Shown here in pieces: positions 1 to 10,950 of a stretch of 10,950 bases of DNA. The notes under the pieces are model-generated. The model worked only from the letters and a program-made list of their open reading frames with translations, ran no database searches and was not told where the DNA came from. The stretch is from a virus (lineage: Duplodnaviria; Heunggongvirae; Uroviricota; Caudoviricetes), in IMG/VR virus record IMGVR_UViG_3300037455_000402, positions 1 to 10,950 of that record; one strand, 5' to 3'. Every line of letters begins with the position of its first letter. The first letter of the stretch is position 1. The translations under genes and the position numbers were made by a program.

Positions 1-5
1 GATTA

Positions 6-14
6 TGATATAAT
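6..14 (+). promoter_or_regulatory. Extended -10 promoter element (TG-A-TATAAT); -35 lies outside the window
   Basis: TGATATAAT followed by ATATATAG, the same downstream motif seen at other promoters in the window. Confidence 0.65.
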
Positions 15-39
15 ATATATAGTAAAGGAGTTGAGGAAA

Positions 40-234
40 ATGAGTATATACACCGTAAACAAGCGTTTCGCCGAGCAGTTCCCCGATTACACCGTCACAG
101 TAATGCCGCCTTGCATTTCCCCTAATCATGAGAGTGAATATATTACAACAGCAAAGGCGGTTGCTCTTGGTGATATTAAATCGTCAAGTGTTGTAATCTT
201 CCACGACCGCAAAGAAATAGTTTATTGTAGATAA
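40..234 (+). CDS. Hypothetical phage protein, 64 aa
   Basis: ATG at 40 after AAGGAG/GAGG RBS; promoter upstream, terminator downstream; TAA stop. Confidence 0.7.
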   Translation: MSIYTVNKRFAEQFPDYTVTVMPPCISPNHESEYITTAKAVALGDIKSSSVVIFHDRKEIVYCR

Positions 235-239
235 GGAAT

Positions 240-262
240 GCCGCCCTTCGGGGCGGTTCTCT
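240..262 (+). terminator. Intrinsic terminator
   Basis: CCGCCC-TTCG-GGGCGG hairpin (cUUCGg loop) followed by a pyrimidine tail, just after the stop codon. Confidence 0.65.
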
Positions 263-327
263 CTCCAATCAAGTTAGTGTCTGCTAACTGGCCCGGGCCG
301 CCGTTAGGTTATACTAACAAAAGACTA

Positions 328-356
328 TTGACAAGGCGGCGAAAGTATGTTATAAT
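328..356 (+). promoter_or_regulatory. Consensus sigma-A/sigma70 promoter
   Basis: TTGACA-17 nt-TATAAT with extended -10 TG. Confidence 0.85.
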
Positions 357-388
357 ATAAATACAGTAAAGGAAAGGTGGTCATACAT

Positions 389-667
389 ATGGCTAAATAT
401 TTTTTAGGTTATTTCTCTAATGGTTACTGCGGTTGCGATGAGGCTCACGGCTTTATTGCAGAAGATGAAGAACAGGTTCGCAAGTACTGCGAAGATATGC
501 TTCCTGAGTATGCAGATGATTCAATCGTGGGTTGTCTCGATGAAGATGAACAGCAGGACGAGGACGCAATGGAAGCGTACTATGCAGAGTGCTTCGTTGA
601 AGTCGAAGAGGTTTCAGAAGAGAAAATGAGAGAGGAAATGGACGACGAAGAACCATTCATTTTGTAA
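389..667 (+). CDS. Small, very acidic hypothetical protein, 92 aa
   Basis: ATG at 389 after GGAAAGGTGG RBS; own promoter; 31 D/E versus 5 K/R. Confidence 0.85.
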   Translation: MAKYFLGYFSNGYCGCDEAHGFIAEDEEQVRKYCEDMLPEYADDSIVGCLDEDEQQDEDAMEAYYAECFVEVEEVSEEKMREEMDDEEPFIL

Positions 668-692
668 AAAGAAAAAATTATATCCGTAGGGG

Positions 693-721
693 TTGACATT
701 CTTGCCCCTATGTGATATAAT
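693..721 (+). promoter_or_regulatory. Consensus sigma-A/sigma70 promoter
   Basis: TTGACA-17 nt-TATAAT with TG. Confidence 0.85.
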
Positions 722-746
722 AAGTATAGTAAAGGAGTTGATACAA

Positions 747-980
747 ATGGAATGGAACAAAGCCATTCGCAAACTGTTTTCTAAAGATTATATCGTTACT
801 CTCACTTTCTATCTCTCAGAGGGCGGCGCTCCCTACAATGGCAAGTATGAGATAACAAATGCAAAGGACGATATTTCCGCTATTATGGCGGCAAAGGAAG
901 AGTTTTACTCTCAGATAACAGACGGCTATTCTAAGCCACTCCCAGACGGTAAACTTGAAATCAATTGCGTAAGAAAGTGA
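747..980 (+). CDS. Hypothetical phage protein, 77 aa
   Basis: ATG at 747 after AAGGAG RBS (the track's TTG start at 693 is the -35 box); TGA stop. Confidence 0.8.
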   Translation: MEWNKAIRKLFSKDYIVTLTFYLSEGGAPYNGKYEITNAKDDISAIMAAKEEFYSQITDGYSKPLPDGKLEINCVRK

Positions 981-990
981 GGTTAGTTAA

Positions 991-1398
991 ATGAGTTACA
1001 ATAGAAGAATAACAGTTCTCTACGGTGTAAGACTTCCACAGCTTTCAAGAGAAAATTGGGAAGAAAAGTTAAATGATTTTCTTTCTACTGACTTCGGTCT
1101 TAACAGTGGAATAGTCGGCGACTGTGCAGAGTACAACAGCATTGACCGAAAAGAGGTTGACAGCGAACTCCTCTATGAGTACATAGGCGAATCAGGTTAT
1201 TTAATCAGTGATGAATTTCTCGACAGTGATTTCCTCGGAGAAAATATTTTAACAATCGAGGACGATGAGGGTAGCAACTGGCGAGACTTACGAGAGATAA
1301 GCGAACAGACGTTCGATATGGGTATTATCGGTCAGTTGGTCTATGCTCTTTTCCCTCTCTCCACTCCGGCGCCATACTTAATTGATTGGGTAATTTAA
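991..1398 (+). CDS. Acidic hypothetical phage protein, 135 aa
   Basis: GAGG RBS; operonic with the upstream gene; TAA stop inside a terminator. Confidence 0.85.
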   Translation: MSYNRRITVLYGVRLPQLSRENWEEKLNDFLSTDFGLNSGIVGDCAEYNSIDRKEVDSELLYEYIGESGYLISDEFLDSDFLGENILTIEDDEGSNWRDLREISEQTFDMGIIGQLVYALFPLSTPAPYLIDWVI

Positions 1399-1412
1399 TT
1401 ACCCAATTTTTT
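1385..1412 (+). terminator. Intrinsic terminator
   Basis: ATTGGGTAATT/AATTACCCAAT inverted repeat followed by a T run. Confidence 0.7.
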
Positions 1413-1506
1413 ATGCCCATTTAGTTAAAACATTTTACTTTAAAGCATTAAAGTGGCCCGGGCCGGATCCAGGGTCCACATGTTAGTCTCTACTAACAAA
1501 AAGGTA

Positions 1507-1535
1507 TTGACAACGCCGCGAAAGTATGGTATAAT
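1507..1535 (+). promoter_or_regulatory. Consensus promoter with no downstream ORF
   Basis: TTGACA-17-TATAAT; near-duplicate of the 290-365 module, including the upstream GGCCCGGGCC and GTTAG-N6-CTAAC. Confidence 0.75.
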
Positions 1536-2155
1536 ATATATAGAATCCGGAAGGCAGAGGGTAAGAGGAAAGTGCAACCACGTGTTAGTCTATACTAACA
1601 TGGCCCGGGTCACTTTACCAGTTTAAAGCGCAACCATGGCCCGGGCTTTTGTTAAAATTTTTAACTAATTCACAAAATGTTTACACCCCGTTCATACGGA
1701 GTCAATATTTGTATGGTATAATATACAGGGGGAGCGCTTTGCTTTAGCGCTTTAAAGCGTTAAAGTTAAAAGATTTAACAATACCCGTCAACATATTTAA
1801 CTAAGTCGTTTCGGAGGGGCAACCCGGGGGAGGGACGCCGTGCGGGGCGTACTGTTCCCAGGAGCTGCGTCAAGGAGCTGCAAAGGAGCTGCAACTCGAA
1901 TGAGCTGCGCCCGGAAGGGTGGTGGGGTGGGAGCTCGGACCAAAGGAGCTGCGACGTAGGAGCTGCGACCCGGGCCGTTTTGTTAAATTTTTTAACAAAT
2001 TCTGTCAAGTTCTTGACAATTATTGCGCGCCGCGGCGCAATTTTGTTAAAATTTTTAATTAAAAATGCAAAGGAGCTGCAACTTGACCTCTTTTTGTCAA
2101 GGTTTTCGCAGCTTTATTATAATATTTTTATTTTTTTATATATATTTCCCCTTTA

Positions 2156-2184
2156 ATTATACCAAAAATTTAGAGAAAAGTCAA
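2156..2184 (-). promoter_or_regulatory. Orphan sigma-A promoter
   Basis: TTGACT-17-TATAAT with TG on the minus strand. Confidence 0.6.
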
Positions 2185-2355
2185 TATTTTACTACCTTAG
2201 AAAAAAAACCTCATGAAAATCTTGACTTTCGTGCGGGGCGCGCCACCATTTTTGTTAAAAATTTTAACTACCTCAGGAGCTGCATCAGAGCTGGAAAATT
2301 GCGATTCTGAGCGATTTTTCCATAGCGTTCGGACCATAAAATTTCAACCCATTCT

Positions 2356-2384
2356 ATTATAACACAAATTTCATAGAAAATCAA
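2356..2384 (-). promoter_or_regulatory. Orphan sigma-A promoter
   Basis: TTGATT-17-TATAAT with TG on the minus strand. Confidence 0.5.
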
Positions 2385-2823
2385 TAGAAAAATGGCTAAA
2401 AAATTATTGAGTGAAACTATTGACTTTTGCTTGCGACGGTGCGCAGCAATTAAAATTCATAGGGTCGTTTTTGAAGGAGAGAGCGGAGATTTGTGTCGGT
2501 TAAGGTCTTTGGCTAAGAGAGACGAACTTTGGGGCGTCTTGGGTTACCGTTACACTCGGAGCTTTTAAACTTTTGTTTCCCTTCCCCTTTTTATTCTTGC
2601 GCCCCTTCCCCCTTCTATTATAATTGTTCTTCCCCTTCCCCTTCTACCTAAGCCCCTTCGCCTTCATTCTCTTGCTGGTTCTTCCCCTTCGGGGTTCTCC
2701 TTGCCTTCGAGTTGCCGCCGTTCGACTTTTCAATTGGTCCTTCCCCTTTCCCCTTTCCCCTTCACCTTCCAACCCCCTTCCCCCTTTCCCCTTCTTTAAT
2801 TAAATTTTTTAACTAACTAACCT

Positions 2824-2859
2824 AAAAAGCTCCTGCCAGTTCTTCAACCAGCAGGAGCC
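2824..2859 (-). terminator. Intrinsic terminator
   Basis: GGCTCCTGCTGGTT-GAAG-AACTGGCAGGAGCT 14-bp stem (G-U pairs form only on the minus strand) followed by TTTT. Confidence 0.75.
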
Positions 2860-3394
2860 TTCTCGGTTAACCTTTTAACTTTTCTCTTGGGTTCTTCGCT
2901 GCATCAAGCCCGCTTCGCCCATTTCATTTTTCACACTACGGCTTGTTTCAGCCGCTTTAATCGCCGCTATTCAATACACAATAATCAATTAACTTACTTA
3001 CTGCATTGGACTTACCTCTTTCTTTTTAAACTGGGCGCTGCTACCGCAACCTCTTCCCAGCTCTTATATTCCGCATTTTTCATCGGTCTATTTCAACGCC
3101 AGACGCTTGACGCTAAAACCTTTATTATATATATTAAAACTTTTATTGAAAAACTTTCTCTGTTCTGCCGCCATTCGGCAAATCTTTTTCTCTATTCTAC
3201 CCCATTCAACTGAACCCCACTTAAATCTTTTGCTCATTTCTTACCCCGACTTTAAAGGTTTTCCGCAATCGGCTCACTCACCTCTCGCCCCTTTAATTAT
3301 TATTATATTATATATTATATAATATATATTATTTAATATATGTATTATTTCTGGATTAAATTTTAATCCACAAGAGTTCAATTTCTGATTTTTC

Positions 3395-3745
3395 TTAGGA
3401 TTTCTCTTCGCCGCCATACCCGCTCTCAATGAACAAGTACCCCGTCAAGTTTTCATAGAGTTCAACCTCTACGAGATACCCTTTCTCAATGAGTTCTTTA
3501 ACGGCGGCAAGGTAAGTATTCTTTGCTATGCCGCAAGCCTAACAGGCATCGACTGCACTCAATCCAAATTCGTAATTTGTTTGATGACGATTTAGGTAAC
3601 ACCATAGCTTAAAAGCATTTGGCTTCAGGCGTTTCATAGCCCCCTCTAAAGCCGCCATATTGAAGATTGAATACGGGTTATCTTTATTAGACTCGGCTTT
3701 TATCGTGCGGATTGCTTTCTATCCGCTATAAAGTTTCGGTAACAT
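3395..3745 (-). CDS. Winged helix-turn-helix DNA-binding protein, 116 aa, with two in-frame TAG codons (read-through)
   Basis: GAGGTGG RBS + ATG; MLPKLYSG*KAIRTIK...AFKLWCYL...LSAVDAC*ACGIAKNTYLAAVKELIEKGYL...KS-TAA; the wHTH pattern continues across TAG at 3719-3721 and 3539-3541. Confidence 0.8.
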
Positions 3746-3759
3746 ATCCCACCTCTTTA

Positions 3760-3786
3760 AATTGAAGAGGGGGAGTGAACCCCCTC
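3760..3786 (-). terminator. Intrinsic terminator or attenuating hairpin
   Basis: GAGGGGG-TTCACT-CCCCCTC followed by TTCAATTT, 5 nt after the TGA. Confidence 0.6.
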
Positions 3787-3791
3787 ATTAC

Positions 3792-4199
3792 TCAGGCAAG
3801 AGTCCAGACGTTAACCTCTCTGCCCTTTGCTCTGTCCTTAGCCATAAGAACCACAGGGTTCTCAGCCTTTGCAGCCTTGCCAAGGAGAGAAGCAACCTTG
3901 TTAGGAGTTACCTCAACGCCCTTAGCCTTAAGAAGCTCAACTACCTCAGCAGAAGTCTTCTTCTTGCCCTTCTCGAGGACAGAAACCATTGCGTTAGTAA
4001 GAGTTGCATCAGCAGATGCCTTAGCGAGTGCCTTCTCGGAAGTCTTTCTCTTCTCGTTCTTCTCGTCGAGCTTTGCGAGTCTTGCCTCAGCGAAAGCCTT
4101 AAGGTCAGCGGAAACGGGAGTCTCAGTACCCTCAAGTGCCTCGAAGAGTGCGAGTACCTCTGCCATTGCCATTCTCTCAGTAAACTTAGTAGCAGCCAT
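3792..4199 (-). CDS. Lys/Ala-rich hypothetical protein, 135 aa, probable coiled-coil plus C-terminal winged-helix DNA-binding domain
   Basis: ATG at 4199 with GAGAGG RBS; strongly biased codon usage (AAG, GCA/GCT, CTC/CTT); own promoter. Confidence 0.85.
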   Translation of the reverse strand: MAATKFTERMAMAEVLALFEALEGTETPVSADLKAFAEARLAKLDEKNEKRKTSEKALAKASADATLTNAMVSVLEKGKKKTSAEVVELLKAKGVEVTPNKVASLLGKAAKAENPVVLMAKDRAKGREVNVWTLA

Positions 4200-4285
4200 A
4201 ATAGCCTCTCTTTCTCCCACTGTAAGGCGGTGGGCGCCATTTGAATTAGGTTTTTTAAAGGTCTCTCTCAACCTTTTCTATATAT

Positions 4286-4314
4286 ATTATAGCATAGATT
4301 TTAGATTTTGTAAA
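4286..4314 (-). promoter_or_regulatory. Repeated phage promoter
   Basis: TTTACA-17-TATAAT with TG, followed by ATATATAGAAAAGGTTGAGAG. Confidence 0.8.
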
Positions 4315-4342
4315 GATTTCTGTTATCTAAAATCTTTTTAAA

Positions 4343-4462
4343 TCCTTGCGGCATCTTCAGCTAAGAGTTTGACTAACAGGGACTAATGCCTTACTCCCCT
4401 GCCGCCCCGCATTAAGCGACTCGGTCTTGCTATGAGTTTGCTCTCTGTTTTGATTACAAGGA
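4343..4462 (-). ncRNA. Putative structured RNA (motif B, copy 1) in the tRNA-Asp trailer
   Basis: Closed by TCCTTGT/GCAAGGA; internal hairpins; shares GGGAGTAAGG..TTAGT with 5341-5443. Confidence 0.4.
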
Positions 4463-4465
4463 CAG

Positions 4466-4542
4466 TGGCGAGCACGAAGGGACTCGAACCCTCAACCTCT
4501 CGGGAGACAACCGAGCGTTCTACTCATTTGAACTACGCACCC
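4466..4542 (-). tRNA. tRNA-Asp(GTC), encoded CCA
   Basis: Cloverleaf; anticodon arm CTCGG-TTGTCTC-CCGAG; TTCGAGT T-loop; G73-CCA. Confidence 0.92.
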
Positions 4543-4551
4543 ATTTAATTG

Positions 4552-4780
4552 AGCTGGAAACATTTTATACTCGCCTTTACTGGTCTCACGCTTATCAGAC
4601 ATATCTGCTTCGCCGCCGCCAGCTTTCTAACACTTTTCCTTACGGCTACTCAGAGCCGACAGGTTCGTTATGCGGAAGGACCTGTAACAACCGCGGGCAG
4701 CATTTACCTCGTGCCCTCGCAAGGTAGTCACCTATAGGGGCAACTCCCTGCTCGGTTTTCTTACAAGGAGAACCGAACTA
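4552..4780 (-). ncRNA. Putative structured RNA (motif A, copy 1) between tRNA-Glu and tRNA-Asp
   Basis: No ORF; several hairpins; shares three ordered sequence blocks with 4868-5150; boundaries approximate. Confidence 0.45.
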
Positions 4781-4788
4781 AACCTTTG

Positions 4789-4863
4789 TGGTAGCGGGTA
4801 CGGGACTCGAACCCGTGTCTCTCGGCTGAGAACCGAGCGTCTTAACCACTTGACTAACCCGCC
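4789..4863 (-). tRNA. tRNA-Glu(CTC), encoded CCA
   Basis: Cloverleaf; anticodon arm CTCGG-TTCTCAG-CCGAG; acceptor GGCGGGT/ACCCGCT. Confidence 0.95.
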
Positions 4864-4867
4864 ATTA

Positions 4868-5150
4868 ATACTGTTTGGTGACTAACCTTTCCACTAACAG
4901 TTTAGCGACTTACCACAGTTTAACGTCTACCAAGGTAAGATATCATCGGGTCGTTTCGTAAACCAACGATAGCACTTTCGAGAGTCACTCAGGGCGCAAC
5001 ACTATTCCCTACGGACAACTATACCGCGAAGGCAGATAACAACTGCGTGTCCCCTTTTACTTCTAACGCCAGCGGAGTTTGCGTTTCTTCGTATTTTAAG
5101 ACACCCCGAAAGAAGAGCCGCCGACCAGATTTTTACTTCCTGTCGCTCCA
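4868..5150 (-). ncRNA. Putative structured RNA (motif A, copy 2) between tRNA-Lys and tRNA-Glu
   Basis: No credible ORF; hairpins; shares blocks with 4552-4780; boundaries approximate. Confidence 0.45.
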
Positions 5151-5156
5151 GAAGAT

Positions 5157-5232
5157 TGGTCGGTGTGATGGGACTCGAACCCACACCCTACTGATTAAGA
5201 GTCAGCTGCTCAACCAATTGAGCTTCACACCG
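5157..5232 (-). tRNA. tRNA-Lys(CTT), encoded CCA
   Basis: Cloverleaf; anticodon arm GCTGA-CTCTTAA-TCAGT; acceptor CGGTGTG/CACACCG. Confidence 0.95.
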
Positions 5233-5269
5233 ATTTATTTATTTGTCTTTCTCAACCTTTTCTATAATA

Positions 5270-5298
5270 ATTATATTATAATTTTTATAGAAAGTCAA
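5270..5298 (-). promoter_or_regulatory. Repeated phage promoter driving the Lys-Glu-Asp tRNA/ncRNA unit
   Basis: TTGACT-17-TATAAT followed by TATTATAGAAAAGGTTGAG. Confidence 0.8.
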
Positions 5299-5340
5299 GT
5301 TTTTCTTAATCTTATTTTTTTATTGAAAAGAGAAATAAAT

Positions 5341-5443
5341 TGGTATCGCCCGTCGTGAGAACTAACCCTTACTCCCTACTGGCTTGCCGCCAGACTTACG
5401 ACTAACAACGCATTGACTTTAGGCTTCACTACATATGGCGATT
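5341..5443 (-). ncRNA. Putative CCA-ended structured RNA (motif B, copy 2)
   Basis: ATCGCC/GGCGAT terminal stem + ACCA; GTCGT/ACGAC stem; CTGGC-GGCAA-GCCAG hairpin. Confidence 0.45.
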
Positions 5444-5521
5444 ATATCAGCCTGAGTTCTTCACCGCAACAACCGTGCTTTGTAGGTTTCATTTATTTCT
5501 CTCTCAACCTTTTCTATATAT

Positions 5522-5550
5522 ATTATAATATAATTTTTAAGAAAAGTAAA
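5522..5550 (-). promoter_or_regulatory. Repeated phage promoter
   Basis: TTTACT-17-TATAAT followed by ATATATAGAAAAGGTTGAGAG. Confidence 0.8.
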
Positions 5551-5572
5551 GATTTAAAAACCTTAGAATTTT

Positions 5573-5965
5573 TTACAGTTCTGTGAGAGTATTACCAGTT
5601 ATGACTGACTCATAACCGTCATACTCATCAATACGAATAAGAGTACCCTTCTTATACCAGTCGATGTAAAGACCATCTGCACCGCCGCAGTAAACATCGT
5701 TATAACCGATAGAAGCACAATACTCTTTGAGAGCTGCTTCATCAATGTCTTCGATATTCCACGGACCTTCAGGAGCTTCAGAAGTTGTAACTGTTGCATT
5801 AACAATCAGCCACTCAATTATTCTGTGGTCAAGTGCAAGGTCAAGTTCACCTTCACCTTTATAAGAGTTCCAAGTGGACCAGCCTGCACCATATCCTGCG
5901 GAAACAAGAACGCCTACCCAAGGCTATCCCTCTTTATCATACTTTACATATTCCTTAATTGCCAT
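5573..5965 (-). CDS. Conserved phage hypothetical protein, 130 aa, with one in-frame TAG (codon 14)
   Basis: AAAGGAAG RBS + ATG; MAIKEYVKYDKEG*PWVGVLVSAGYGAGWSTWN...YCGGADGLYIDWYKKGTLIRIDEYDGYESV...EL-TAA; the GYGAGWSTWN/IDEYDG motifs resemble a recurring phage family (from recall). Confidence 0.82.
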
Positions 5966-5996
5966 TTAATATCTTCCTTTCTTTGACTGAAATTTT

Positions 5997-6116
5997 TGGT
6001 GGAGCCTGCGGGCATTGCACCCGCACCTCGGGGCTCCCCAGCCCCGCGTGCTGCCTAAAACTGACTTTCCTAAAGCGTCCTCTAAGTAGTATCGGTCCGC
6101 TTGACACCCAAGCCCC
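5997..6116 (-). ncRNA. tRNA-like RNA, 120 nt, Ala-type acceptor, greatly expanded D-loop, 8-nt anticodon loop
   Basis: GGGGCTT/AGGCTCC-A-CCA (G3:U70); GTGT/GCAC D-stem; CGGGG-CTGGGGAG-CCCCG; GCGGG-TGCAATG-CCCGC. Confidence 0.7.
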
Positions 6117-6117
6117 A

Positions 6118-6327
6118 TATTAAACACTAAATAGCTGACATAGCTTCCATTATGTGGTGGAATCGAACCACCTATTCTACGATTGGCAGCTGACATAGTG
6201 GATTTCTCACTCTCTTTCTTGCGGCGTGAGCTGTACAATCTCACTAAAGAGCGTCCGAATATTTTCCAAGCCGTTCCTCTCTCTTATCGTTTCCAGACTC
6301 GCTATGCCAGCTATTTAGTATTTAATA
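6118..6327 (-). ncRNA. Structured RNA with a 27-bp terminal helix and a tRNA T-arm (Y-RNA/YrlA-like candidate)
   Basis: 6118-6144 and 6301-6327 are fully complementary on the minus strand (2 G-U pairs); GGTGG-TTCGATT-CCACC at 6156-6172. Confidence 0.65.
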
Positions 6328-6334
6328 ATTTTAC

Positions 6335-6411
6335 TGGTGCGGTTAGAGAGACTCGAACTCTCAAGACTTCGGTTCTTAGCCGAAGATGTCTGCCAGTTGC
6401 ATCATAACCAC
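6335..6411 (-). tRNA. tRNA-Leu(AAG) with a short variable loop, encoded CCA
   Basis: GTGGTTA/TAACCGC-A-CCA; TTCGG-CTAAGAA-CCGAA; GAGAG-TTCGAGT-CTCTC. Confidence 0.88.
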
Positions 6412-6418
6412 ATTTAAT

Positions 6419-6525
6419 TGGTGGAGACTACGGGAGTTGGAACCCGCTTCGACCGTTTCTTTCAACGGCGGCTCAGGAGACTTCCATCGAAGCACTCCCC
6501 GAGATACTGACCTCTGCCAGTCCCC
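6419..6525 (-). ncRNA. tRNA-like RNA, 107 nt, Ala-type acceptor, D-arm replaced by a long hairpin
   Basis: GGGGACT/AGTCTCC-A-CCA (G3:U70); GCCGT-TGAAGAA-ACGGT; GCGGG-TTCCAACT-CCCGT. Confidence 0.7.
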
Positions 6526-6529
6526 ATTT

Positions 6530-6998
6530 AAAAGTGAGGTAGTAGTTCCACTATCCAGTCACTACCAACCAAGGTAGAAAGGTTGTTTTCCACTAAACGC
6601 AGGAAAATTCTCCTAAAAGCTGCTGCCCCGTCAATTTGTTAATCGCCTTTCAGTTCTGCCGCCGTACCTCTTGCGGTCGGAGAACTTTAGTGGTCAGCGG
6701 ATTTCGACTCTTCCCGACCACACACGCTCATCTGCGATGCCCTACACCCACTTACGTGACCTAAGGCTGGTCTATGTCAATCTTGATGGCTTTAGTCAGG
6801 ACTTGGTGTTGAGCTTCTCTGTTTCTGTCGTGATTGGTGAGTTCCCGACTTCAGGCGGCATTGCGTCACCCCAGCTAAGTGTCACCAACAGTTCTTTGGA
6901 CTTACTTCATCATTGCCCCCTTGGGTTAATGAATGCCAACCCTCGCACAAGCCCAGATTAAAACCATCAAGACTATCGGTTACAATTGCTTCACATTT
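6530..6998 (-). ncRNA. Large structured ncRNA, ~470 nt (ROOL/GOLLD-like candidate)
   Basis: No credible ORF; 25/27-bp long-range helix 6779-6805/6948-6974; several nested stems; lies in a phage tRNA cluster; family assignment unverified. Confidence 0.55.
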
Positions 6999-7047
6999 AT
7001 ATAGCGGAGAACTCAGAAACCGTACCGAACCGTGTACCGCTTATTTA

Positions 7048-7320
7048 TTACTCAGACTGAGTTTCATTGATTATCTTCCAGAAAGCGTAGACAGGAACAT
7101 CATCAAGCTCGCCGCTGTAATCGTAGTCGATATTCTCAGCATTTACTGTAAGAAAAAGCTCTTCAACAGTAGCATCTTCAGCAAGTGTAGCGAATACCCA
7201 CTCAACTTCGTGAACAGCAGGTTTGCCGTTCTCGTCAACGTCTTCTTCATCAACAAGCCAGTAAGTTCCATCATCTTCACGATGAACTGTGAATTCAATG
7301 TAAGAGCATATTGTTTTCAT
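7048..7320 (-). CDS. Small acidic hypothetical protein, 90 aa
   Basis: AAAGGAAG RBS; own promoter; 24 D/E residues; TAA stop. Confidence 0.85.
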   Translation of the reverse strand: MKTICSYIEFTVHREDDGTYWLVDEEDVDENGKPAVHEVEWVFATLAEDATVEELFLTVNAENIDYDYSGELDDVPVYAFWKIINETQSE

Positions 7321-7355
7321 TAACTTTACTTCCTTTCTTTACCTTTTCTATATAT

Positions 7356-7384
7356 ATTATAGCATAATTTTTGAAATTTGTAAA
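7356..7384 (-). promoter_or_regulatory. Repeated phage promoter
   Basis: TTTACA-17-TATAAT with TG, followed by ATATATAGAAAAGG. Confidence 0.8.
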
Positions 7385-7404
7385 GATTTTTGAGCTCTTA
7401 ATTT

Positions 7405-7656
7405 TTAATAAAGAACTCGCTGCTTTTCACACCAGACGACATCTTCGACGGAATACTCAGCACCGAACTGCTCAGTTTCTTCGGTCCATTCGGTAAGGAT
7501 TTTATCAGCTGCATCGAGCCAACCTTTCTTTTTGTAGTATTCAATCATAGCATCTACTTCTCGCTTACCTGCTGTAATCGCCGCCTCAGGAGTACCAAAA
7601 ATGTCGACTTCAGCTACGTCGAAATAGTGGACAACCCATACGTATTTGTCTTCCAT
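7405..7656 (-). CDS. Hypothetical phage protein, 83 aa
   Basis: AAGGAG RBS; TGATG stop/start overlap with the upstream gene. Confidence 0.85.
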   Translation of the reverse strand: MEDKYVWVVHYFDVAEVDIFGTPEAAITAGKREVDAMIEYYKKKGWLDAADKILTEWTEETEQFGAEYSVEDVVWCEKQRVLY

Positions 7657-7853
7657 CAGTCGAACTCCTTTCCAGTGAGCTGCTTGTAGATTCCGCTGAG
7701 AACGTCTTTTGCATCATCACTGTCTATCTCATTCCAGCTGTTTACACCGCCGTTTTTGAAGAGGACAGATACTTTACTGCCGTTACGAACCACGCTCACG
7801 ATTTCGTCCTTATCAGCAAAGCAAGAATCATTTAACTTAATGTATTTCGCCAT
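7656..7853 (-). CDS. Hypothetical phage protein, 65 aa
   Basis: AAAGGAAG RBS; own promoter; translationally coupled to the next gene. Confidence 0.8.
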   Translation of the reverse strand: MAKYIKLNDSCFADKDEIVSVVRNGSKVSVLFKNGGVNSWNEIDSDDAKDVLSGIYKQLTGKEFD

Positions 7854-7887
7854 TTTTTAACTTCCTTTCTTAACCTTTTCTATATAT

Positions 7888-7916
7888 ATTATAATATAAT
7901 TTTCAAGAAAAGTAAA
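7888..7916 (-). promoter_or_regulatory. Repeated phage promoter
   Basis: TTTACT-17-TATAAT followed by ATATATAGAAAAGG. Confidence 0.8.
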
Positions 7917-7918
7917 GA

Positions 7919-8098
7919 TTAAAAAGTATTTGAATTTTTATTTTGTGGCTCAACTCTCAGATACCACTGAAAGCCCGCATTGTCTGTATATACGCCGCCG
8001 TGCCTATCATAGAAGTCCTTTGCATCTTTATGAGACACACCTTCCATAATAACCTTGTCGAACTTATCATATGAACTCTAACCGACTACTTTAAACAT
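7919..8098 (-). CDS. Hypothetical protein, 59 aa, with an in-frame TAG (codon 7)
   Basis: GGAGGA RBS + ATG overlapping the phosphoesterase stop; MFKVVG*SSYDKFDKVIMEGVSHKDAKDFYDRHGGVYTDNAGFQWYLRVEPQNKNSNTF-TAA. Confidence 0.65.
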
Positions 8099-8663
8099 TT
8101 GTATCCTCCCCAAGGAATGAGATACATTCCTCTACTTTTTCATTGAAGTCTGTAATGACCTGCTCGATTGATACAGGTCTATTGTCGTGAGCATCTGCCG
8201 CCACATTGTACATATAAGGACGGTCCTCATAGAACTTATCCTTACTGTGAGTATGACCGAACAGATTGATTACTGCACGGTTCGGGTCTTGTTCAAGACC
8301 TGCGGTCAGTGTCGGATAATGTGAGAGATAAAACTCACGCTTTTTGTACTTAATCTTAGTTGCATAACCCTCACAAAAAACGAGCGGGTCTTCATAATAC
8401 ATCTGAATCTTTTTAGGAGTATCGTGGTTGCCGAAGATAAGATGAATGTTTCCCTTGAGTTTCATAATTGTATCACGAATGAAGCGTTCATCAGTACCGA
8501 GGAAGAAATCTCCCAGTACATAAATGTCATCAGCATCGGTAACTGTTTCGTTCCAGTTCTTGATGAGAGTTTCATTCATTTCTTCGATTGATTTGAACCC
8601 TCTCGGTCCATACACGAACTCTCTGTCGTGATTAAAATGTGTATCACTGATAAAATAAATCAT
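8091..8663 (-). CDS. Calcineurin-like metallophosphoesterase, 190 aa
   Basis: Motifs SDTHFNH, LGDF, GNHD, SHYP, GHTH; the ATG at 8663 has better AAGGAG spacing than 8669. Confidence 0.93.
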   Translation of the reverse strand: MIYFISDTHFNHDREFVYGPRGFKSIEEMNETLIKNWNETVTDADDIYVLGDFFLGTDERFIRDTIMKLKGNIHLIFGNHDTPKKIQMYYEDPLVFCEGYATKIKYKKREFYLSHYPTLTAGLEQDPNRAVINLFGHTHSKDKFYEDRPYMYNVAADAHDNRPVSIEQVITDFNEKVEECISFLGEDTNV

Positions 8664-8674
8664 TCTCATTCTCC

Positions 8675-9160
8675 TTACTTTTTCATAATGAATGGCATTA
8701 TCACGCCGACGATTCTACGAGGATTAGGACGGAAGATGAAAACTGGGGAGAACTCGTCCTTAACCCAGATTTCATCGGTGGCTGAGAAGTATTCAAGATA
8801 TTTCCCCTGTACATAAACGCTACCCTCGTCCTTTGCAATCTTTGCAATCATTTTCTTACGAGAGGGAGAACCGATATTTGTCTCACCAACTACGATACCT
8901 CTTTCATACCCCTTGAAGTCGAATAACATTCTACCTGTATTTGTGTAGTAGCTATACGGATTGTCAAGGTCAACAGGAGAGATAACTTCTTTATCAATGT
9001 GGCGGAGAACATCTTCCCAACCAACTAACAGCGAACTGAAGTTGCCGAAAGGCACATTCTCAACCACTATTTGAGTAGCAAGAACTTCGTCCTTGCCTGC
9101 ATAAAGCTTTTTAGCCAGTTCAAGCTGGAACTTTAAGTCTTTTGACATCTTCTCTGCCAT
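8675..9160 (-). CDS. Hypothetical protein, 161 aa; C-terminus resembles a beta-clamp-like domain end
   Basis: GAGAGGA RBS before the ATG at 9160; own promoter; ends ...SPVFIF...VGVIMPF. Confidence 0.8.
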   Translation of the reverse strand: MAEKMSKDLKFQLELAKKLYAGKDEVLATQIVVENVPFGNFSSLLVGWEDVLRHIDKEVISPVDLDNPYSYYTNTGRMLFDFKGYERGIVVGETNIGSPSRKKMIAKIAKDEGSVYVQGKYLEYFSATDEIWVKDEFSPVFIFRPNPRRIVGVIMPFIMKK

Positions 9161-9194
9161 TTCTTTTTTCCTCTCTTTCATCTTTTCTATATAT

Positions 9195-9223
9195 ATTATA
9201 TCATAATTTTTTATTTTTGTAAA
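9195..9223 (-). promoter_or_regulatory. Repeated phage promoter (overlaps the 3' end of the brxL-like gene)
   Basis: TTTACA-17-TATAAT with TG, followed by ATATATAGAAAAG. Confidence 0.8.
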
Positions 9224-10635
9224 GACTTTATCTTTATAGAGGGCATCTTAACATCTTCATATTCCTCATCGAGATGACGTAACTGACAAAGGACCGCCCA
9301 TCTCATTCTGATAGCAGGCTGGAGGCAGTAGGTATTGAAATCTTCTATGTTAACATCTGCAACAGACTTAACCTGCGGGAAAAGTAATTTCAAATAAGCT
9401 GTGCAAGTCTTCTTGATAGCTTCAAAGTTTCTTGTATCGCAGTTACCCTCTATTTCAAGAATCTCGTCAACGATTGCTCTGTAGTAAAACTCATTACGAA
9501 GTTCGTGGAACATACCTGTAAGATAGTTTGCGCTTAAGCCCCAGCCCTCATACTTCTTATTCTCAGTGAAACGTCCTATCTTCCAACCTTCGATGATACC
9601 AGAGAAGCGGTCAAGGAACGCTGACTCCTTAAACATCTTAGGAAGAGTGGAGAACATATTGTGCTTCTCGAAGTCCATTTGACCAATCGGAATATTACCA
9701 ACAAGGGTAAGACCTGCATCGGCTGAACCGCAGTAGTTACCAATACGAATTTCACCATTTTCAAGATAAGGCTTGAGCACACCGTTCATTTCCTCAGCAT
9801 TTGCACACTTGATAGTCTGGCACTCGTCCCATATTACGTTGTCGTAACGAGAGAAGTAACCAACTTTCTTAGTGGCATTGTTGTAAAAAGCTGTAGCGCG
9901 GCTGACTGTACCAGAAGTAAGCCAGTTATGAATTGAAAGCTGTGAATAGCAGTATGACTTACCACTACCCTTGATAGCTAACTCTATCTGATTAAGTCTC
10001 TTCTCTACGAAAGGAAGAAAACGCTGAAGGAGAGTTAACTTGCCCTCCTTATCAAATCCTTTGGGATTGAAGTTAAGACCTGCAAGAAGAACATCTATCC
10101 ACTCATCTGTGGTGTACTGCTCTCTACCCTTCTGGTACTTCTTTAACTCAAAAGTGTATGGACAAAGTGGCTTAAACTCGACGAGCTTAACCATACCACA
10201 ATCATAACATAGAGTTGCTTCACCCCAAGCACCATCAGGATTGAGAAGGTGATTTTTAGAATGAGCAATTGTGGACCAGTCGAGCTGTGCTTCATTCTTC
10301 TTCTTAGGGAAGCCATATTCGGGAAGACTAAAGCAAATTAACTCATTTGCATAGTCAAACTCGACTACGACCTTTGTAAGAAGTTTAATTTCTCCTTTTG
10401 CAGTATGAGCTGCTTCAAGGAGTTTTAAGTTCCATTCGTTTGTCTTTAAACGAAACTCCTTAACGTATTCGCTTAATTCAAATGCCTGAAGAACACCTTC
10501 ACGATTTGTGAATTTCTGGAGTAACCAAGACTTTACGTCAGCAGGTAAATCAAGAAAATTTGCGAGAGTATTACCTGATGTAGTCTTGTTGATTGTCGCT
10601 TCGGGAAATGCCCCGATTAACTTTGTGTAATCCAT
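9211..10635 (-). CDS. brxL: BrxL-like MCM-related AAA+ ATPase lacking the C-terminal Lon protease domain, 474 aa
   Basis: R..YTTDEWIDVLL, LLQRFLPFVE, Walker A ELAIKGSGKS, Walker B VIWDE, LVGN, SAFLDRFSG.I.GW arginine-finger region; ends soon after the ATPase domain. Confidence 0.85.
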   Translation of the reverse strand: MDYTKLIGAFPEATINKTTSGNTLANFLDLPADVKSWLLQKFTNREGVLQAFELSEYVKEFRLKTNEWNLKLLEAAHTAKGEIKLLTKVVVEFDYANELICFSLPEYGFPKKKNEAQLDWSTIAHSKNHLLNPDGAWGEATLCYDCGMVKLVEFKPLCPYTFELKKYQKGREQYTTDEWIDVLLAGLNFNPKGFDKEGKLTLLQRFLPFVEKRLNQIELAIKGSGKSYCYSQLSIHNWLTSGTVSRATAFYNNATKKVGYFSRYDNVIWDECQTIKCANAEEMNGVLKPYLENGEIRIGNYCGSADAGLTLVGNIPIGQMDFEKHNMFSTLPKMFKESAFLDRFSGIIEGWKIGRFTENKKYEGWGLSANYLTGMFHELRNEFYYRAIVDEILEIEGNCDTRNFEAIKKTCTAYLKLLFPQVKSVADVNIEDFNTYCLQPAIRMRWAVLCQLRHLDEEYEDVKMPSIKIKSLQK

Positions 10636-10669
10636 TTAACTTAATTTCCTTTCCTAACTTTCTATATAT

Positions 10670-10698
10670 ATTATAGCATAAATTTTAACAAAAGTAAA
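10670..10698 (-). promoter_or_regulatory. Repeated phage promoter
   Basis: TTTACT-17-TATAAT with TG, followed by ATATATAGAAAG. Confidence 0.8.
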
Positions 10699-10713
10699 GA
10701 AAGTTATTTAATT

Positions 10714-10750
10714 AAAAATTTCGCCGCCATACCTAAATAGCACGGCGGCA
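10714..10750 (-). terminator. Intrinsic terminator
   Basis: GCCGCCGTGC/GTATGGCGGC stem followed by AAATTTTT, after a TAA stop. Confidence 0.65.
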
Positions 10751-10755
10751 CTTTG

Positions 10756-10950
10756 TTAGTCATCAATTTTTTTCAATATGTAAGTGTCATTTACCTCAGT
10801 AAGATGTTTCTCAGTAAGACCGTCGTCGAACTCTTCATCAAGATGTTGGCTCCAGTCCTGAGCAACTCTTTCAAGAAGGTGGTCGTAGCACTTCATTTCA
10901 AAATTGCATCGGTCGCCATAAAGTGCAATTGCAACTGCAACATCTCCCTG
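10756..10950 (-). CDS. 3' end of a hypothetical protein (truncated by the window edge)
   Basis: Open frame QGDVAVAIALYGDRCNFEMKCYDHLL...LKKIDD-TAA followed by a terminator. Confidence 0.7.
   Translation of the reverse strand, partial: QGDVAVAIALYGDRCNFEMKCYDHLLERVAQDWSQHLDEEFDDGLTEKHLTEVNDTYILKKIDD

Follow-up and report, generated by a model that had tools for sequence, protein, structure and literature searches.

Structured RNAs of unclear role are a known kind of element in phage tRNA clusters. Phage T4 makes RNAC and RNAD, small non-tRNA RNAs from its tRNA region, whose function is given as unknown (PMC3014915; PMC9697503). ROOL (RF03087) and GOLLD are pseudoknot-rich phage RNAs that lie near tRNA islands (PMC12286853). 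Theta ribozymes, which are minimal HDV-like ribozymes, are tRNA-adjacent structured RNAs of gut phages, often recoded ones, and they cut no more than 5 nt from the 3′ end of a tRNA (PMC10879173). From outside phages comes the flaviviral xrRNA, an RNA that can stop the bacterial enzyme RNase J1 in vitro (PMC5760640). Why phages retain structured non-tRNA RNAs such as RNAC/RNAD, ROOL and GOLLD among their tRNA genes has long been an open question.

The window analysed here, 10,950 nt, is the stretch 1-10950 of a phage record that is 186,457 bases long and carries 48 tRNA genes, one tmRNA and, at 14358-14953 of the genome, a ROOL RNA (RF03087). Bovine gut metagenomes make up most of the best-matching public runs for this large rumen-type phage. 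It has two CTA tRNAs and TAG-containing frames, from which it looks TAG-recoded. On the minus strand of the window a predicted sigma70-type promoter (5270-5298, 11/12 to consensus), whose site belongs to a repeated promoter family, is followed by tRNA-Lys(CTT) (5157-5232), a 293-nt spacer, tRNA-Glu(CTC) (4789-4863), a 246-nt spacer and tRNA-Asp(GTC) (4466-4542). All features of this unit are on the minus strand, and the spacers are named here after the tRNA that precedes them.

The two spacers can be divided into modules, designated X, Y, W and Z, with a linker M between X and Y. Whereas T4 produces RNAC and RNAD, the present locus contains several shuffled modules with predicted pseudoknots; the likeness to the T4 RNAs is one of setting and concerns a putative discrete RNA. 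The modules resemble ROOL and GOLLD in their richness in pseudoknots near tRNAs, but they are 80-145 nt long and match no Rfam model. They differ from theta ribozymes in that no HDV L3 or fold was found in them, and Y lies on the 5′ side of its tRNA. None of the four is in Rfam 15, and no description was found in the literature searched, although the alignment archives of PMC10690425 may contain these RNAs. The sequences of X, Y, W and Z are uncatalogued, whereas their general kind is known.

Sequence blocks shared by the two spacers

According to the original prediction, the two spacers carry copies of one RNA, motif A, in which three conserved cores flank a hairpin of variable length. The three blocks are present in both spacers, on the minus strand, at the positions claimed, and the flanking tRNAs were correctly named as Lys, Glu and Asp. 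Block 1 (GARGTAAA) is found at 4710-4703 in the Glu spacer and at 5063-5056 in the Lys spacer. Block 2 (4695-4685 and 5047-5037) is identical at 10/11 positions and block 3 (4645-4629 and 5014-4998) at 15/17. When the spacers were compared with dinucleotide shuffles, block 3 alone was scored as well by 15/1000, blocks 2 and 3 in collinear order were matched by 3/1000, and all three blocks by 17/1000, so that block 1 contributes no further signal. With gaps allowed, local alignment of the two spacers gave a score reached by 145/2000 shuffles. The Glu/Lys pair is the top-scoring among 21 spacer pairs in the window, and the chance of the two-block match is therefore ~0.06 after correction. In the related phage G001 blocks 2 and 3 were matched in 4/500 shuffles, a value that is not independent of the window result. 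The two-block similarity between the spacers is borderline: suggestive, not decisive. No further collinear copy of motif A was found elsewhere in this phage genome.

Relatives came from pattern scans and a capsid-based search, by which the phage group numbers 1866 capsid relatives. They include five distinct Lys-spacer orthologues with both blocks (G001, G049, L136, L162 and L194) and two rearranged Lys-spacer relatives (G025 and G010); the comparison set for the Glu spacer consists of one orthologue (G001) and variant tables from two read contigs. The picture of three conserved cores around a hairpin does not survive this comparison. The Lys copy has block 1 only by virtue of an insertion of 4 bases that is missing from 5/5 orthologues, AGTGTT of the Lys copy is retained in 1/5, and the unit is lost or split in the rearranged relatives. 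In G025 the first part stops directly past block 2, next to tRNA-Ala, and the block 3 region lies 506 nt upstream, behind a promoter; in G010 block 3 is present, block 2 is missing, and X is followed by Y. In 5/5 Lys orthologues with linker M block 2 is kept, and so are the initial 10 nt of block 3, but this says little because the orthologues are ~93% identical overall. In the Glu copy block 1 has two changes in G001, and one Glu-type read contig differs at 3 positions of block 2 and at 2 of block 3.

The search for further homologues on which the proposed family depended gave only its own starting material: a joint-core sequence profile run over 50 phage records matched 3, all training sequences, with no third copy. 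A structure descriptor of the two-helix unit found no third member in 0.47 Mb, and missed the Lys copies as well. Among the matches listed, the pattern scans returned orthologues and RNase P alone and no independent members of motif A. The pattern for blocks 1 and 2 gave 1 orthologue among at least 117 viral loci, among the matches listed, and that for block 3 gave 1 among 4; with the two-block pattern, 2/5 viral loci were orthologues and 5/68 metagenome loci lay in tRNA arrays, two of these being duplicates. BLAST of the Glu spacer against 49 records had G001 as its sole homologue, none of the 11 weak matches that were inspected being homologous, and against cultured phages BLAST matched little of the region besides the tRNA among the matches listed (20/57 records).

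Of the two stems first suggested, GGACA/TGTCC in the Lys copy is mismatched in 4/5 aligned rows and out of register with the stem of the Glu copy, and is given up. The variants are compatible with GCTGC/GTAGC in the Glu copy, but equally with a local hairpin that competes for the same 3′ strand. A different fold can be formed in both copies: a 4-bp stem with UUGUUA continuing from its 5′ strand, then a hairpin ending CCGU, then ARGGAA. This two-helix version has one compensatory pair per copy, in few sequences. Two short helices common to both copies favor common ancestry, but as motif A has no third member, old duplication and chance are not separable. Motif A is likely no family but a match that spans module junctions and is in part due to chance, and as first proposed it should not enter catalogues as a family. 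What stands of the earlier proposal of a structured RNA is that these are conserved non-coding spacers with compensatory changes; a single self-contained family is not supported. The Rfam scan that had been suggested found no family in either spacer, and one 12-bit match (E 6.6).

Modules of the Lys and Glu spacers

The Lys spacer, which no reading frame spans, consists of X (5149-5071), linker M (5070-5011) and Y (5011-4870). Module X is a conserved RNA of ~80 nt from no known family, with 7 copies in 0.59 Mb; a divergent copy in G010 has a compensated 3-bp helix, and in G025 X occurs without Y beside it. Linker M holds the strain-specific block 1 (5063-5056) and block 2 (5047-5037), the latter within a hairpin (5046-5043/5035-5032) that is followed by another at 5027-5024/5014-5011. 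One compensatory pair is seen in 5 rows of M, which is shortened after block 2 in G025 and missing from G010.

Module Y, an RNA of ~145 nt, begins with helix H0 (5010-5007/4994-4991), which takes in block 3: AGGG of the block is one strand of H0 and AGTGTT is its variable loop, and the H0 partner of block 3 is absent from the Glu copy. A long-range helix P1 (4988-4983/4883-4878), a helix H1 (4906-4902/4897-4893) and, at the 3′ end of Y, a predicted pseudoknot (4901-4898/4873-4870) complete the proposed fold; tRNA-Glu begins 6 nt past the pseudoknot. In 11 aligned copies from ~8 related phages, fitted to a model that holds H0 and H1 and leaves the pseudoknot outside, 16 named pairs are formed in 93.6% of cells. 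Double changes are seen at 7/16 pairs, a count reached in 10/500 shuffles, and in 19 cells, for which 0/500 shuffles were that high. The covariation score was reached by 0/500 shuffles, and slid controls were far lower. The four central pairs of P1 are kept in 7 copies parsed (of 10), and G001 violates some H1 and pseudoknot pairs. Few unpaired bases of Y are invariant.

All of the copies (11/11) end 1-2 nt, by the model end, before a tRNA, which may be Glu, Lys or Leu. A second copy in this genome, at 17492-17644 on the minus strand, lies between tRNA-Glu(TTC) and tRNA-Lys(CTT); it recurs in G001, and its upstream neighbour differs from that of Y in the Lys spacer. One copy in L194 consists of the 3′ domain alone, and in G025 Y sits apart from X, straight behind a promoter. 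The distribution is narrow (4/49 related records). The covariance model found no Y in the Glu spacer, and a pattern for the Y 3′ end gave 2 real copies among 116 viral loci, both already known. A GTDB scan covering 3/64 parts, with 100 of 120 loci scored by the Y model, gave 4 weak matches (≤16.7 bits) that were dropped as pattern-selected.

On these comparisons Y is a credible candidate for an uncatalogued RNA, and the best supported of the spacer modules. Its covariation, its natural minimal version and its fixed place relative to the tRNA make it a small object for study. It might further represent a novel class of tRNA-leader RNA. Such a device, with two pseudoknots and reducible to ~55 nt, would be put before different tRNAs and would control their 5′ maturation, either through self-cleavage or through host nucleases that it steers or blocks; we consider this unlikely. 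We liken Y to xrRNA: in Y the loop of the last hairpin of a multi-helix junction is predicted to pair with bases immediately 3′ of the closing helix, presumably as in xrRNA. Y has no sequence relation to the flaviviral xrRNA, and the likeness is in predicted topology alone. Two other resemblances were followed and rejected. Block 3 presumably recalls the 3′ end of the TPP riboswitch, but neither the CUGAGA sensor nor the model score gave a match in these spacers. The letters of P1 in Y recall, as we take it, P7 of group I introns, but P1 is unbulged, there is no P3 partner upstream, and Rfam gives no match to a group I core.

Module W of the Glu spacer (4642-4775) has two hairpins and two predicted pseudoknots, and takes in the first two blocks as well as the beginning of block 3. 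The first predicted pseudoknot combines 4725-4720/4711-4706 with 4716-4712/4699-4695, the second 4694-4691/4675-4672 with 4685-4678/4666-4659, and a hairpin follows at 4658-4654/4647-4643. Its hairpins and predicted pseudoknots show compensatory or pair-keeping changes in 3-4 sequences, from G001 and the two read contigs. An alternative pairing of block 2 with 4671-4667 is disrupted in one variant and was dropped. Segment Z (4552-4641) holds the rest of block 3 and a domain closed by a putative helix, 4624-4619/4557-4552, that is invariant in 4 sequences. Neither the X profile nor the Y model matches Z; as a possible paralogue of X it was rejected, since the post hoc comparison gave 4-9/400 shuffles against the G010 copy and nothing against the window copy, with no profile match. 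A coding role for the Glu spacer was also discarded, its one fully open frame having no start context. Single-sequence folding z-scores (Y -0.46, X with M +1.29, W -1.53, Z +0.06) are not better than those of shuffles. The start of the Glu spacer (4768-4777, minus strand) repeats 9 bases from the anticodon arm of tRNA-Glu, and in the Glu spacer of G001 part of the D-loop is repeated too, besides the anticodon arm.

Origin and possible roles of the spacer modules

The reading we prefer, with a probability of about one half, is that each spacer is a string of RNA modules of predicted fold which were shuffled separately, likely co-transcribed with the tRNAs and likely freed as stable small RNAs, and that motif A is likely in part a chance match. 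As judged from their order in related arrays, the modules do move independently: this is established by the rearrangements in G025 and G010, by the second Y copy and by the 3′-domain copy in L194. RNase P cleaves at the 5′ end of tRNA. A single transcript would start from the promoter at 5298-5270, and a cut by RNase P at the 5′ end of tRNA-Glu would free the Lys-spacer RNA, whose 3′ end would then be the Y pseudoknot plus ~6 nt. If the pseudoknot resists 3′-to-5′ trimming the spacer RNA would persist, and it might accumulate as T4 RNAC and RNAD do. The likeliest job of such a putative freed RNA is keeping the tRNA precursor folded and stable; by analogy with xrRNA, blocking of RNase J1 by the Y pseudoknot RNA is possible.

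Contigs from 4/4 rumen RNA runs, of 4 studies, cover the Lys spacer. These data are assembled contigs, which carry no strand, true ends or level, and DNA may be present in them. Among the matches listed, three RNA-run contigs end at 4877, 4882 and 4887, whereas those from runs that are probably DNA or carry no label extend into tRNA-Glu. The ends near tRNA-Glu are a weak hint of a processed spacer RNA, as reverse transcription or assembly may simply stop close to a tRNA. The Glu spacer is covered by one 151-nt contig at depth 2, and its lack of RNA contigs speaks neither for nor against a transcript.

A different origin, which we hold to be possible but doubtful, would make blocks 2 and 3 a true paralogous subdomain, left by an old duplication of a tRNA plus its spacer, with a stem inserted in the Glu copy, and likely a shared protein-binding or tertiary-contact site. 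The collinearity of the blocks (3/1000 shuffles) is in its favor, as are a compensatory change of the first stem in the Lys copies, pair-keeping changes in the Glu copies, CGG/CCG pairs in register in both copies, and the intact block 2 and first 10 nt of block 3 in the Lys orthologues with linker M, although the identity of ~93% makes this last point a weak one. A third member is absent from the 50 records and, by descriptor, from 0.47 Mb; in addition, the Glu-type contig carries the changes in blocks 2 and 3 given above, and the unit is lost or split in G010 and G025. That the spacers are instead decayed, non-functional duplicates, as the weak folding z-scores and the occurrence of Y in 4/49 related records might imply, is highly improbable: the compensatory changes in Y and W largely refute decay, and the high identity across phages and the RNA-library contigs over the spacer also speak against it.

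Nested pseudoknots are typical of small ribozymes, and Y or W might be a new self-cleaving, theta-like ribozyme that frees tRNA ends. Besides the nested pseudoknots, the fixed distance of Y from its tRNA fits this view, as does the phage's apparent TAG recoding, a setting reported for theta ribozymes (PMC10879173). We nevertheless regard it as very unlikely, and the ribozyme originally suggested was not borne out. By the core words and the HDV descriptor used, the spacers contain neither an HDV L3 nor a core of the hammerhead, twister, hairpin or glmS ribozymes or of group I and group II RNAs, and no Rfam ribozyme is matched at E ≤10, the hammerhead, twister, hairpin and glmS families included. 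The HDV nested double pseudoknot, with L3 and the catalytic C in J4/2, was not found by the descriptor or Rfam; one isolated GGCGAA alone turned up. Few unpaired bases of Y are invariant, as noted, and Y abuts the tRNA 5′ end, whereas theta sites lie at the 3′ end. It is also very improbable that the blocks were captured from the RNase P specificity domain (P8-P9-P10), or came to resemble part of it by convergence, and act as a tRNA-elbow decoy or chaperone. Of the metagenome two-block matches, 9/68 are class A RNase P RNAs (RF00010) at P8-P9, and the Lys copy shares with them ~20 bases, the same spacing and the same P9-like stem. Those nine are near-identical relatives selected by the pattern, however, and the P8 pairing of block 2 with the following strand is impossible in the phage, where block 2 forms a different, covarying stem. 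The rest of RNase P RNA is absent: neither J11/12, J12/13 nor a catalytic domain lies nearby, CR-I/CR-V were not found, and the genome has no RF00010 match at E ≤10.

Other elements on the DNA

Module B (4345-4450, minus strand) follows tRNA-Asp and occurs in 7 arrays, behind different tRNAs. Its first word presumably recalls the T-loops of RNase P J11/12 or of the T-box, and a variant of it is covered by an RNA-library contig. Upstream of the Lys-Glu-Asp unit, also on the minus strand, 5345-5480 is a structured non-coding unit with its own promoter-like site, conserved in G001. A probable small gene with one in-frame TAG lies at 5572-5964 (minus strand) and is not a whole ORF under table 11.

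Several further non-coding elements occupy the minus strand. At 5995-6117 there is an RNA of ~120 nt with tmRNA-like ends closing a 9-bp stem, a CCA tail and no tag region; it is conserved in G049 and G001, and Rfam gives a 15-bit tRNA match alone. A 200-nt RNA at 6123-6322, found also in G001, has a terminal helix of ~24 bp with a T-arm-like hairpin inside. The tRNA/tmRNA-like element at 6419-6525, ending CTCCACCA, was missed by ARAGORN; it has a weak RF00023 match (E 0.0075) and is near-identical in G001 and L194. The ~500 nt at 6520-7040 are ORF-poor, GC-richer, and partly conserved but rearranged in G001, G049 and L194, with no significant Rfam match.

Elsewhere in the phage record (G000), a paralogous spacer family (TAAGA...CAGCAAT) has 5 copies on the minus strand, at 13901, 19765, 25217, 26142 and 27604, each with a long terminal helix around tRNA-like sequence; its pair scores are well above those of motif A. 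A spacer of G049 (L317 3960-4200, minus strand) falls below the Rfam gathering score for ROOL, the words of which it presumably recalls. At 9211-10635 on the minus strand of the window the phage encodes a BREX BrxL-like ATPase (Pfam PF13337, PF20442).
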